Translations under genes and position numbers: made by a program
From: a virus
IMG/VR virus record: IMGVR_UViG_3300031788_001256
Length of the DNA: 21,155 nt
Direction: 5' to 3' (one strand)
Notes under the pieces: generated by a model
Seen by the model: only the letters and a program-made list of their open reading frames with translations
The model's database searches: none
Told to the model about the DNA's origin: nothing
In this document: piece by piece, positions 278 to 20,681 of the stretch
How positions within the stretch are numbered: the first letter of the stretch is position 1
Layout of the letters: each line of letters begins with the position of its first letter

Positions 278-588
278 ATTTATCCGCTTTATTCCAACTG
301 GTATACCTTAGCATCCCGTGTGGTGCTCTGAGTGCATTGATCACCCAAGGGGCGATATTTAACCCTCTACATGCTGCGTTACGTTTACGTAGCCCTTGGC
401 TGGACGAATTGCTTTCCTGCCCATGGTGTACAAGTCAGTGGATTGCGGCTATTTTGGTGTGTATTTATCACCCAATCGTGATCTCTTGTTGGGCTCCAAT
501 TGACTATTTTGTATCAATTTTAGTGATGGCTGCACTTGCGTCTGTCACCGTTAAGCTGGTATACTCAATATACAAGTCTATGGACTAA
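274..588 (+). CDS. small integral membrane protein, DUF1360-like (C-P-x-C-x-S-x-W motif)
   Basis: Internal ATG of the 253..588 ORF. Several hydrophobic helices. Motif LSCPWCTSQWIAA matches the conserved CPxCxSxW of the DUF1360 membrane-protein family as I remember it. Confidence 0.5.
   Translation: MNLSALFQLVYLSIPCGALSALITQGAIFNPLHAALRLRSPWLDELLSCPWCTSQWIAAILVCIYHPIVISCWAPIDYFVSILVMAALASVTVKLVYSIYKSMD
557..565 (+). promoter_or_regulatory. TGgTATACT extended -10-like motif, 28 nt upstream of the ligase ATG
   Basis: Sequence tggtatact. Same motif class recurs at 9929, 11421, 17581 and 20675, always just upstream of a gene start. Confidence 0.35.
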
Positions 589-593
589 TAATT

Positions 594-2690
594 ATGGGTC
601 TTCAAGAATACACCACAGCGCTAAACGCGAAACTAGAAAAAGCACGGGACGCTTATTACAAGAAGGGCGAACCCGTGATGTCCGATGCTGAATATGACGC
701 TCAGGAAAAAGAGTTGGCGGATATAATATCGGCTAATCCTCAATTGAAGGTGTTCGCCCCTGTACTCCATACAGTGGGTTCCGATGTAACGGCCTCTGGA
801 AGAGTGAAGCACAGCCGTCCCATGCTCAGCATTGAGAACAAATACACTGTTGATGACTTTGTGGAATGGGCTAAGAAAATATGGGCAGGATATCCCGACG
901 CCAAATTCTGCTTAGAGCCAAAATTTGATGGTGTGAGCGTAGAATTAAGGTATAGGCATGGAAAATTGCATCAAGCCGTTTCCCGCGGTACGGGCAGTGA
1001 AGGAGAAGATTGCACTTTACAGGTAATGGCGATCAAATCCATTCCAAAAACAGTACCTAATAGTTTTCCAAATGTGTTTGACATTCGGGGAGAAATGGTC
1101 ATGCGGAATGACACCCTTGAACGTCTCAACGCTGAGGCCCAAAAATATGGGGGTAAAATTTATCAGTCCACCCGTAATCTAACAGCGGGTACCATGAAAA
1201 AGCAAGACGCTAAAATTGTAGCTAGTCGTGACCTTGAATATAGACCTTGGGAAGTGACAGGTTCAGATTTAAATGATAGTGGGTTTGCCCGCTTGGATAT
1301 GCTTGTTGATGCGGGGTTTGTCGCTCCCTTGGGAGAACTGGTAGAAGATGAAGCTTCACTACGAGCTGTTTTAGCGAAGAAACTTAAGGAGCGCACAACT
1401 AAACTTCGTGATATTCTTTCCTTGGAAACTGATGGCGTAGTCATTAAAGTAGATTCGAATGCTTTACGCACACAGTTAGGAGTTGCTTCTAAATATACCA
1501 ACTGGCAAACCTGCTTCAAACCCCAATCTGCCTCTGGTACTACGTATCTACGCAGCATCGAATGGCAGGTAGGACGAACAGGAAAATTGTCTCCTGTTGC
1601 GGAATGTGACCCCGTGATACTGGCTTCCGCGAAGGTCGAACACGCCAGTCTTAACAACATCTCCTGGATTAAAGAAAAAGGTTTGAAACTGGGGGCAAAG
1701 GTAGAAATGCTGCGATCCGGGGATGTGATCCCTCAAATCGTTCGTGTGATTGACGAAGGGGATGATGAAATCATTCCACCAACAAAATGTCCGGAATGCG
1801 CTGGAAAAGTTGTGGAGATGGATGAGGGCGGAGTAGGCATCATTCAACATTTTTGTACCAATCAAGCATGCCCCGGTATTCTACGGGGGTATTTGGCTTT
1901 TATTGGTAGTAGGGATGTACTAGAAATCGATGGGTTGGGTCCAGAAGCAGCAAGAACACTAGTGAAAGAGGAAGGGATCCATGATCTGGCTGGGCTTTTT
2001 AATTTTTATAATAGATGCCAAGATAAAAGACTCTCCATGGATACAAATAAAGAATTTATCGCCTATGCTCGAATGATAGGATTTGATGCCACTCTTCCCA
2101 AAATGTTGGATTCCTTAGAGAAGGCTAAAACCGCTCCTTGGGAGCGTTGGATCAAAGCTTTGGGGATTCCTATGATTGGGGAAACTCATGGTAAAGCTTT
2201 GGTGACATTTTTTAAGCTCACCCCAGAGAGCTTCAAAGATTTATGGCAAATTACCCAAAACTTGGAAGAGAACAAAATTGAGGGTATAGGGCCGCAGAAA
2301 ATAAAAGCTTTATCTGAATGGGGGGCGAACCCTGACAACAAAGTTTTGTGTTTGTCATTATTCAATTTAGGTGTGCGTCCTACTCCTCCGGAAACGCCTA
2401 AAATAGTAGCTGGGGCACCTCTAAGTGGTATTATTTTCTGCATTACAGGGGAGTTTGACGAAGATAGAAACTCTCTTATCAAGAAACTTGTTAGCTTAGG
2501 GGCCGAATCTAAAACTGGTGTAACCAAAAAAATAAATCTTTTGATCGTTGGTGATGACGCGGGAAAAACTAAGTTGACTAAAGCCGCAGAATTAGGTATA
2601 AAACAAGTAGGGAAAGATTGGCTCGTTAAAACTTTGTCCGATAGCGGCATTAAAATGTCGCAAAATAACTTTGTTCCAGAGCAGGCGTAA
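594..2690 (+). CDS. ligA: NAD+-dependent DNA ligase (LigA family)
   Basis: 698 aa. N-terminal Ia-like region (SDAEYDAQEKEL), adenylation KxDG motif (CLEPKFDGVSVEL), OB-fold (GRTGKLSPVAECDPV, GDVIPQIVRV), four-Cys zinc finger (CPECAGKV...CTNQACP), HhH region and C-terminal BRCT (IFCITGEF...LLIVGDDAGKTKLTKAAELGIKQV). Collinear with E. coli LigA from memory. Confidence 0.92.
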   Translation: MGLQEYTTALNAKLEKARDAYYKKGEPVMSDAEYDAQEKELADIISANPQLKVFAPVLHTVGSDVTASGRVKHSRPMLSIENKYTVDDFVEWAKKIWAGYPDAKFCLEPKFDGVSVELRYRHGKLHQAVSRGTGSEGEDCTLQVMAIKSIPKTVPNSFPNVFDIRGEMVMRNDTLERLNAEAQKYGGKIYQSTRNLTAGTMKKQDAKIVASRDLEYRPWEVTGSDLNDSGFARLDMLVDAGFVAPLGELVEDEASLRAVLAKKLKERTTKLRDILSLETDGVVIKVDSNALRTQLGVASKYTNWQTCFKPQSASGTTYLRSIEWQVGRTGKLSPVAECDPVILASAKVEHASLNNISWIKEKGLKLGAKVEMLRSGDVIPQIVRVIDEGDDEIIPPTKCPECAGKVVEMDEGGVGIIQHFCTNQACPGILRGYLAFIGSRDVLEIDGLGPEAARTLVKEEGIHDLAGLFNFYNRCQDKRLSMDTNKEFIAYARMIGFDATLPKMLDSLEKAKTAPWERWIKALGIPMIGETHGKALVTFFKLTPESFKDLWQITQNLEENKIEGIGPQKIKALSEWGANPDNKVLCLSLFNLGVRPTPPETPKIVAGAPLSGIIFCITGEFDEDRNSLIKKLVSLGAESKTGVTKKINLLIVGDDAGKTKLTKAAELGIKQVGKDWLVKTLSDSGIKMSQNNFVPEQA

Positions 2691-2701
2691 GGAGTGAAAA
2701 T

Positions 2702-3070
2702 ATGAAAATGAAAATCGTTACTATGTTTATCGCACTTTTCTTCGTTTTGGGAGTTAATTCCCAAGCACAGGGTGTTTCTTATCCGTATTCTGTAGTTTTG
2801 ACTTGGACTCCCCCATCTGGGGCTACAGGTATTAATGTCTACAGAACAACTTATTCGTCTGGAGCTTGTGGAACTTTCGCACTCCTGACAACCACATCAC
2901 TCACCGGTACAGCAAAGACTTATACGGATACAACGGTAGCCTCTTTGGGGGATTATTGCTACGGAGTTACAGCTCTGGTTGGTGCAGCTGAATCAGGAAT
3001 GTCGAATATTCCTCCCCCGTCACAGATTCCGCCTACGCCACCTACAGCCTTGGCTACACAAGAACAATAA
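2702..3070 (+). CDS. secreted fibronectin type III-like domain protein with Pro-rich C-terminal tail
   Basis: RBS AAGGAG 7 nt upstream. Signal peptide MKMKIVTMFIALFFVLGVNSQAQG. FN3 hallmarks (LTWTPP...GINVYR...YTDT...GDYCYGVTAL). PPPSQIPPTPP tail. Confidence 0.7.
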   Translation: MKMKIVTMFIALFFVLGVNSQAQGVSYPYSVVLTWTPPSGATGINVYRTTYSSGACGTFALLTTTSLTGTAKTYTDTTVASLGDYCYGVTALVGAAESGMSNIPPPSQIPPTPPTALATQEQ

Positions 3071-20587: not shown

Positions 20588-20611
20588 CTGGTTGGTGATT
20601 CGTCCATAGTT

Positions 20612-20650
20612 AAAGGGGTGATCCTGGTCAGGTCGCCCCTTCTCCTTTTG
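20612..20650 (+). terminator. probable intrinsic terminator downstream of the MVP-like gene (AAGGGG...CCCCTT stem, then CTCCTTTT)
   Basis: Seen directly. Long loop with internal pairing. The T-tract is interrupted. Confidence 0.5.
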
Positions 20651-20674
20651 ATCTAGCCATTTACGATTTTCAGT

Positions 20675-20681
20675 GTATACT
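20675..20681 (+). promoter_or_regulatory. TGTATACT -10-like motif
   Basis: cagtgtatactagaaggtATG lies 13 nt before the ATG at 20689. Confidence 0.3.

Follow-up and report, generated by a model that had tools for sequence, protein, structure and literature searches.

The question raised by this locus is whether a short box that recurs just ahead of genes in a viral genome is a promoter and, if so, of which kind. The locus is a stretch of DNA of 21,155 nucleotides (nt) from the IMG/VR record IMGVR_UViG_3300031788_001256 (hereafter the window, to which all coordinates refer), in which a first-pass annotation had pointed out five TATACT motifs upstream of gene starts and likened them to extended −10 or phage-specific promoters. 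All five are present, apart from small slips in position (the motifs start at 9930 and 20674, not at 9929 and 20675), and the related TGgTATTAT-type site mentioned before the gene at 13688 is found as TGGTATTAT at 13665-13673. The accompanying statement that TATACT occurs nowhere else is incorrect: there are 11 copies on both strands, compared to 8.0 ± 3.0 expected, and eight of them are on the plus strand. The three additional plus-strand copies (6802-6807, in the OmpA-domain gene, 10689-10694 and 19445-19450) all lie within genes without a preceding G, and serve as non-promoter controls. The five noted sites have in common a G directly before the hexamer. The resulting heptamer, GTATACT, occurs seven times on both strands (1.63 ± 1.41 expected), a four-fold over-representation that none of 100 shuffles reaches, and its five plus-strand copies are exactly the five noted sites. 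GTATACT is therefore a sharper motif than TATACT, and the observation is stronger once restated in this way. The box is real and conserved and probably functions as a promoter, and the pattern of its sites makes it likely that these boxes are −10 elements of the sigma-70 family, whichever sigma factor reads them.

The location of the box was studied in nine loci (201,901 nt, with 335 genes according to public pipelines) made up of the window, 17 kb of its own contig and eight loci from relatives. Copies were counted as start-proximal if they lay 3-45 nt upstream of a called start on the coding strand, the gene calls being solely those that accompany the public contigs. By this measure, 13 of the 21 coding-strand copies of GTATACT are start-proximal when 6.9% would be expected (p = 1e-10). 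The same is true of 11 of 15 copies (p = 3e-10) when only the relatives are counted, a count that leaves out the window's phage, where the hypothesis arose. Neither TATACT without the G (1/10) nor the reverse complement of the heptamer (2/9) is significantly start-proximal. In a seven-locus set, GTATACT ranks first in start proximity among the 16,384 heptamers, above the Shine-Dalgarno heptamers; it is also the top non-tRNA heptamer when intergenic and coding counts are compared (10 vs 2), and among the 60 hexamers of the same base composition none is as start-proximal as TATACT. The base that follows GTATAC is a T in 13 of 14 start-proximal cases vs 6 of 20 elsewhere; the box is thus directional, which argues against a palindromic protein-binding or restriction site. 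Start proximity extends to the broader pattern TGGTAnnnT (9 of 25 copies, p = 6e-4). A crude analysis based on an open reading frame (ORF) mask gave a modest hexamer enrichment (TATACT, 9 vs 24) resembling that of other AT-rich hexamers; the signal is decisive only once the G is included and the public gene calls are used.

The box is also conserved at orthologous genes. The ligase neighbourhood is syntenic in the relatives L179-L183, and the gene for an HD_4 phosphohydrolase, which in the window's phage lies 2.6 kb upstream of the window, has a box 6-8 nt before its ATG in six phages: GTATACT in L179, L180, L181 and L182, and GTATAAT in L183 and in the window's phage. This box is kept across genomes of 45-65% GC, while the flanking intergenic sequence is otherwise unalignable. 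At the ligase gene itself, a box is found in four of the six phages (GTATACT 6 nt before the start in L181, GTATAAT at 6 nt in L182, cTATACT at 41 nt in L183 and TGGTATACT at 28 nt in the window). The locus L177 carries an orthologue (79% identical) of the SprT-like gene of the window and keeps its promoter as TATACA-18-TGTATACT; the 55 nt that run from the −35 region to the ATG show two changes, and the 30 nt further upstream show six. This retention is weak evidence of constraint, since the adjoining 5' coding sequence is equally conserved. In L180, no BLASTP alignment was obtained between SprT and the product of the gene that follows the box at 21895, and their orthology could not be shown.

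The sequence of the sites is informative about the class of promoter to which they could belong. Every site reads TATACT, which matches the sigma-70 −10 element (TAnnnT) at T−12, A−11 and T−7. In an alignment of 20 sites, selected as GTATACT, only the G at −13 and the hexamer are informative; the −35 region holds at most 0.7 bit per position, and a T is found at −14 in ~40% of the sites (counted from the alignment). Some relatives have −35 hexamers: TTGACT-17-TATACT occurs twice in L029 and cGGACA-18-TATACT in L014, L015 and L012, and the region upstream of the relatives' vault-protein gene reads TTGACG-17-TATCAA, TTGATG-17-TATCAC, TTGACT-17-TATACT or TTGCAA-17-TATAAG. In the window, the earlier remark that no −35 element is recognisable is right for sites 17582 and 20676 (sites are named by the first nucleotide of their hexamer), where there is nothing of the kind; it does not apply to 9933 and 11423, both with TACACA, or to 560, with TTGCGT. 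These weak −35-like hexamers at three sites, together with the TTGACT-17-TATACT of the relatives, place the putative element in the sigma-70 family and contradict the suggestion that it is independent of sigma factors. As for the proposal of an extended −10 element, the canonical TGn is present at 557 and 9930; the other three sites lack it (TG is at −14/−13 at 11421 and 20674, and absent at 17581), the common feature being the G at −13. Finally, TTGACA-17-(G)TATTAT, on the plus strand at 12482-12510, is a canonical promoter that heads a repeated non-coding element of 153 nt upstream of the tRNA cluster. Judging by its sequence, this genome makes use of full −35/−10 promoters as well, likewise with a G at −13.

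The distance between the box and the start codon provides an indirect indication of where transcription might begin. In the nine loci, an ATG follows GTATACT after 5-8 nt in 7 of 21 copies, and TAnnnT shows a peak exactly 6 nt before called start codons (11 vs ~3.3 per position). The sequences at this peak mostly have the G at −13 (GTATAAT, GTATGAT, GTAGGAT, GTATCAT, GTAGCAT, GTACAAT and GTATACT). The peak implies that many messenger RNAs (mRNAs) of this lineage may be leaderless, and is an indirect sign of a start 6-8 nt after the box.

A second motif was found in the same position relative to genes. In the nine loci, 11 of 18 coding-strand copies of CATCTAA lie 3-45 nt before called starts (p = 4e-9). 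Its extended form is (G)CATCTAA(G), i.e. GCATCTAAG; it is seen four times as CATCTAA-N5-ATG, is often preceded at 1-5 nt by a −10-like hexamer, and can be lined up in register with G-TATACT. It occurs in the window at 9960-9967 and 14676-14683 and in the relatives L179-L182, L014 and L015, and the ferredoxin gene has both motifs. It may correspond to a second promoter class or to a start-site element.

Taken together, these observations suggest a scenario in which promoters would be scattered inside the long single-strand gene array of a huge phage. The G at −13 and the TATACT at −12 to −7 would be the main element recognised by the RNA polymerase holoenzyme, with a weak or absent −35, and transcription would start 6-8 nt downstream of the box. 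The resulting mRNAs would either lack a leader, the ATG being 6-8 nt past the box (20689 is an example), or carry leaders of 15-30 nt that begin at or near the Shine-Dalgarno sequence, as for SprT and the mini-ORF that precedes ferredoxin. The five sites could in this way restart or boost transcription before the ligase gene, the ferredoxin gene, the SprT-like gene, a zinc-ribbon ORF and the ORF that follows the terminator of the vault-protein gene. The simplest model would be a single sigma-70-like specificity, TTGACA-17-G-TAnnnT, whose strength is set by the −35, since the G at −13 is found in all the promoter types, TATAAT replaces TATACT at orthologous sites and TTGACT is found at 17 nt. 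The host primary sigma factor would be the simplest reader, and the RpoD promoters listed for E. coli include some with TATACT as their −10 (PMC3946193). The core of the initial proposal, namely −10 elements with little or no −35 and very short 5' untranslated regions (UTRs), thus seems to withstand scrutiny, in agreement with the enrichment at gene starts, the strand dependence, the orthologous conservation and the spacing of 6-8 nt.

Alternatively, the boxes could make up a phage-specific promoter class (e.g. of middle genes), essentially reduced to the −10 and read by a phage sigma-like factor or by a host polymerase remodelled by the phage. The probabilities of this reading and of the favored one overlap, as both treat the box as a promoter; we consider a dedicated phage factor rather unlikely. 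Under that hypothesis, GCATCTAAG would be a second −10-only class corresponding to another temporal class, and many mRNAs would be leaderless in phages of more than 400 kb. The heptamer does not vary at any position across phages of 45-65% GC, its one-mismatch variants are rare at gene starts, its information is confined to the G at −13 and the hexamer, and the equally start-proximal CATCTAA shares its register, all of which would fit such a factor. Huge phages have moreover been reported to encode their own sigma-70 and AsiA-like proteins (PMC7162821), and Thermus phage P23-45 has middle and late promoters of the extended −10 class (PMC3950348). Nevertheless, no sigma or RNA polymerase Pfam family was found among the ~335 called genes (which cover at most ~40 kb per genome, under half of it), the TATACT of some relatives has a perfect TTGACT −35 at 17 nt, TATAAT stands in place of TATACT at orthologous sites, and the G at −13 is shared by the canonical TTGACA-17-TATTAT promoter. 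The strand specificity of the motif and its position 0-40 nt from start codons could also be explained by an element acting in the RNA, either a 5' UTR or translation-initiation element or an RNA processing site near start codons, and sites 11423 and L180:21895 do share a small GGTG...CACC inverted repeat around the Shine-Dalgarno sequence, downstream of the box. Yet the −10 consensus is matched at all critical positions, TTGACT lies at exactly 17 nt in L029, the 6-8 nt to the ATG equal a −10-to-start distance, with the TAnnnT peak at 6 nt being a hallmark of leaderless genes, and no Rfam family matches at any site, which makes an RNA-level role very improbable. Chance, or a site for a DNA-binding or restriction-modification protein without any role in promotion, would agree with the frequency of TATACT in the window and with the perfect palindrome GTATAC. 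The over-representation of the heptamer, its enrichment upstream of genes in the independent relatives, its trailing T and the lack of enrichment of the reverse orientation, which are not expected of a palindromic site, already disfavor this explanation and leave it hardly credible.

Several observations weigh against sigma-70-type −10 boxes of the kind favored here. The evidence from the window alone is thin, since the hexamer by itself is no more frequent there than by chance and two of the five downstream ORFs are unannotated. Only two of the five sites have the canonical TGn extension. The 17 kb that flank the window hold no further intergenic GTATACT just upstream of a called start. The exact heptamer is far commoner at starts than its one-mismatch variants, which is unusual for a degenerate host −10 and would be compatible with a dedicated phage factor: 13 matches vs only GTAAACT (2/7) and GTAGACT (2/4) among the variants with at least two upstream matches. 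The existence of the second, equally start-proximal motif also speaks against a plain degenerate host box. At sites 9933, 11423 and 13668, the predicted start would coincide with the Shine-Dalgarno sequence or lie inside it. Finally, the gap between the vault-protein and RlaP genes of the relatives has a terminator hairpin and no TATACT; site 20676 is thus not positionally conserved, and individual sites turn over.

Other candidates were considered and rejected. An archaeal TATA-box, suggested by the distances of 18-28 nt, was rejected in view of the TTGACA-17-TATTAT promoters, the OmpA-domain gene and the bacterial-type NAD ligase. A likeness of three or four sites (TATACTATAGAAG; TATACTATAG(A/G)) to SP6/T7-type promoters was discarded because only 7 nt are common across the sites. 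The Bacteroidota sigma-ABfr element TAnnTTTG was rejected too, as the enrichment of TATATTTG (19 intergenic vs 10 coding) is confined to distant vault-protein loci that are largely bacterial; the close phage clade shows no such enrichment, its leading heptamers being those of the Shine-Dalgarno type and GTATACT. In the distant vault-protein loci from metagenomes (e.g. L032-L096), TATATTTG and TAAATTAA are strongly enriched in intergenic DNA. The match of TATATTTG to TAnnTTTG suggests that most of these distant loci are Cytophagales-type bacterial chromosomes, not phages. The leaderless and G-TAnnnT signature was also looked for in labelled bacterial loci as a clue to the host, and proved too noisy to use.

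The individual sites differ in their surroundings, and all are on the plus strand. Their initial description as lying in short gaps 13-30 nt before genes holds only in part, as it fails at sites 560 and 9933. Site 560 is of the extended −10 type (TGGTATACT, 557-565, with TG at −15/−14, G at −13 and the hexamer at 560-565); it lies 28 nt before the ATG of the NAD-dependent ligase (594), within the final 29 nt of the preceding DUF1360 ORF (274-588). Its candidate −35, TTGCGT (536-541), 18 nt upstream of the hexamer, has three of six matches to TTGACA and is read from the sequence only. Site 9933 (TACACA-17-TATACT, 9910-9938) has the TG extension, with TGGTATACT at 9930-9938 and a predicted start near 9945; a mini-ORF of 18 codons (9957-10013) comes next, and the distance to the ferredoxin ATG (10001) is 62 nt. 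The mini-ORF, Lys/Arg-rich (MASKKSVKPKRRSKSWHM) and equipped with a good Shine-Dalgarno sequence, shares 13 nt with the start of the ferredoxin gene; it may encode a leader peptide, serve translational coupling or be spurious. The CATCTAA-type copy at this gene, GCATCTAA (9960-9967, plus strand), stands after TAAAAT-gg, with 33 nt between it and the ferredoxin ATG; it could be another promoter of ferredoxin or a 5'-end element of that gene. At site 11423 (TACACA-18-TATACT, 11399-11428, with TGTATACT at 11421-11428), the box lies 22 nt before the ATG of the SprT-like gene (11451), and the predicted start coincides with the GGAGG Shine-Dalgarno sequence of that gene. The site TGGTATTAT is of the same class (TG, G at −13, TAnnnT) and stands 14 nt before the ATG at 13688.

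The gene starts assumed downstream of the last two sites agree less well with the public annotation of the same sequence, in which both ORFs are uncalled. Site 17582 (GTATACT, 17581-17587) is preceded by gc and has no −35-like hexamer; it is located 11 nt past the stop of a 40-amino-acid (aa) CxxC ORF (17449-17571) and 25 nt before a 59-aa zinc-ribbon-like ORF (17613-17792). Both ORFs have paired CxxC motifs, are zinc-ribbon-like and fall in a 438-nt stretch left empty by the public gene callers. Site 20676 (TGTATACT, 20674-20681) lies 7 nt before the ATG of a 68-aa ORF (20689-20895) and 182 nt before the RlaP start (20864), a leaderless configuration for which relatives show the same spacing of 6-8 nt; this spacing suggests that the unannotated ORF is real. 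Directly upstream of this site, after the gene for a major vault protein, there is a terminator-like hairpin with a T-rich tail (20613-20651, plus strand). The hairpin (20613-20641) is part of the minimum free energy fold of 20588-20675 (−25.8 kcal/mol, z = −1.8), and 14 of 200 shuffles fold as well; the tail was read from the sequence.

Apart from these sites, the window has a promoter-like extended −10, TGGTAGAGT (18093-18101, plus strand), 32 nt before the likely ATG of the major vault protein (18134). The vault-protein gene (18134-20587, listed as an ORF from a TTG at 18107) is full length and matches the Pfam families MVP_shoulder (3.6e-26) and Vault_3. Its homologues are 55-77% identical on huge-phage-like contigs and 41-46% identical in many bacterial metagenome-assembled or other genomes, including Myxococcota, Cytophagales, Vulcanimicrobiota and Sericytochromatia. 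The 153-nt non-coding element headed by the canonical promoter (12475-12626) has a second copy ~10.6 kb downstream (L006, 14995-15145; 95% identity), and a third CTTGACAAATT box is found further downstream on L006, at ~28310 in window numbering; the 153-nt element has no Rfam match and could encode a small RNA. Within 2 kb (12711-14535) there are a tRNA-Leu and four tRNA-Ser genes that differ in anticodon, and these are followed on L006 by a dense tRNA array with a recurrent CACCAAGTTT at the 3' ends of the tRNAs. The Rfam scan recovered only tRNAs, none of them at any motif site; a HEARO RNA match in a 293-nt gap (8113-8373), away from the sites, is below threshold (26 bits, E = 0.07, gathering score 83). 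Next to SprT, the contig L177 carries a TnpB/Cas12f-like gene. The gene at 10911-11366 varies among strains, since L002, L003, L005 and L006 have ~48 extra nt at 11104 and a product of 168 aa instead of 151 aa.

All the genes of the window are on the plus strand; they include those for the NAD-dependent ligase, an OmpA-domain protein, an ABC ATPase, a 2x[4Fe-4S] ferredoxin, the SprT-like protease and PTH2, as well as a full-length major-vault-protein homologue and five tRNAs. A megablast of the window against GenBank phages gave no nucleotide match, nor did IMG/VR scans with an exact 45-mer and two protein seeds give any. The vault protein is 42% identical to those of LR756500, LR756501 and LR756503, which are uncultured phage records of 462-735 kb. 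An identical ligase is recorded in 111 blocks of the assembly collection, and the longest contigs that carry the window's own proteins measure 152,942 and 178,295 nt. Closer relatives, with 55-77% protein identity and 52-65% GC, come from contigs of 436-894 kb, which carry tRNA clusters and have their genes arrayed on one strand. This places the window in a widespread lineage of uncultivated huge phages. Eleven loci pulled with its ligase and vault-protein sequences (L001-L011) are 99.7-100% identical strains with the same motif sites throughout, and are therefore uninformative on constraint. The longest relative, L015 (JGI 3300035696, Ga0374055_0000025), is a contig of 894,233 nt with a phage-like one-strand gene array and a vault protein 70% identical. 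It exceeds the 841 kb given for the largest huge phage in the abstract of a 2025 preprint, and could be a concatemer or a misassembly. The closest named cellular homologues of the ligase (594-2690) annotated at NCBI belong to Acidobacteriota and Holophagaceae (33-35% identity), which gives a faint indication of what the host may be.

Almost all that is known of huge phages comes from metagenomes, and how they programme transcription is unstudied. A short box that can be scanned for would help to predict operon boundaries and real start codons in their genomes, and it already speaks for the reality of several small ORFs that the gene callers missed. Temporal gene classes and, indirectly, host range could be approached through leaderless mRNAs and through what may be a second class of motif; if a phage factor were after all the reader, there would be two dedicated promoter classes defining temporal gene classes in phages of more than 400 kb. 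The element is of a type familiar among bacterial promoters, and its value is for this reason practical rather than conceptual, the phage group itself being unstudied.

Phage-directed promoter use is exemplified by the gp39 switch of P23-45 and by the sigma-like gp55 of T4, which reads the T4 late promoters (TATAAATA), a short and near-invariant −10 element without conserved −35 found before many phage genes. The boxes described here resemble the latter in being a single short, near-invariant −10 element repeated before many phage genes. They differ from it in sequence, in the canonical −35 of some relatives' copies and in their downstream genes, which are related to DNA metabolism or accessory functions and are not structural; besides, the loci examined (at most ~40 kb of any genome) showed no homologue of gp55, gp33 or a sigma factor. 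The likeness to extended −10 promoters (TGnTATAAT) and to the P23-45 middle and late promoters, which are of that class and lack a −35 (PMC3950348), resides in the dominance of the −10, the G-containing extension directly upstream, the small or absent contribution of the −35 and the position inside phage gene arrays, and sites 557 and 9930 of the window are exact TGnTATACT. Unlike in those promoters, the common extension is a G at −13 that abuts the hexamer instead of T−15 G−14, the hexamer is almost invariantly TATACT, and no gp39-like switch protein is known in these phages. TATACT has also been proposed as the −10 consensus of sigma-S, whose promoters often lack a −35 (PMC5650638). The hexamer of the E. 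coli sigma-S element (C)TATACT is identical to the one studied here, but sigma-S prefers a C at −13, where these boxes have a G, and none of the four copies of CTATACT is start-proximal; there is no reason to invoke RpoS. The jumbo phages phiKZ and AR9 have early promoters for their virion RNA polymerase and late promoters for their non-virion one, with motifs (AAATATATATTAT-N6-G, long and AT-rich, AACA-N6-TA/G, or TATG) at a fixed distance from the transcription start (PMC5312081). The boxes of the window's lineage are likewise repeated promoter-like motifs of giant phages, but what the 20 aligned sites conserve, in contrast to phiKZ/AR9 and to T7-type promoters, is only 7 nt with a sigma-70-type −10, rather than a sequence of at least 13-23 nt that includes the start site.

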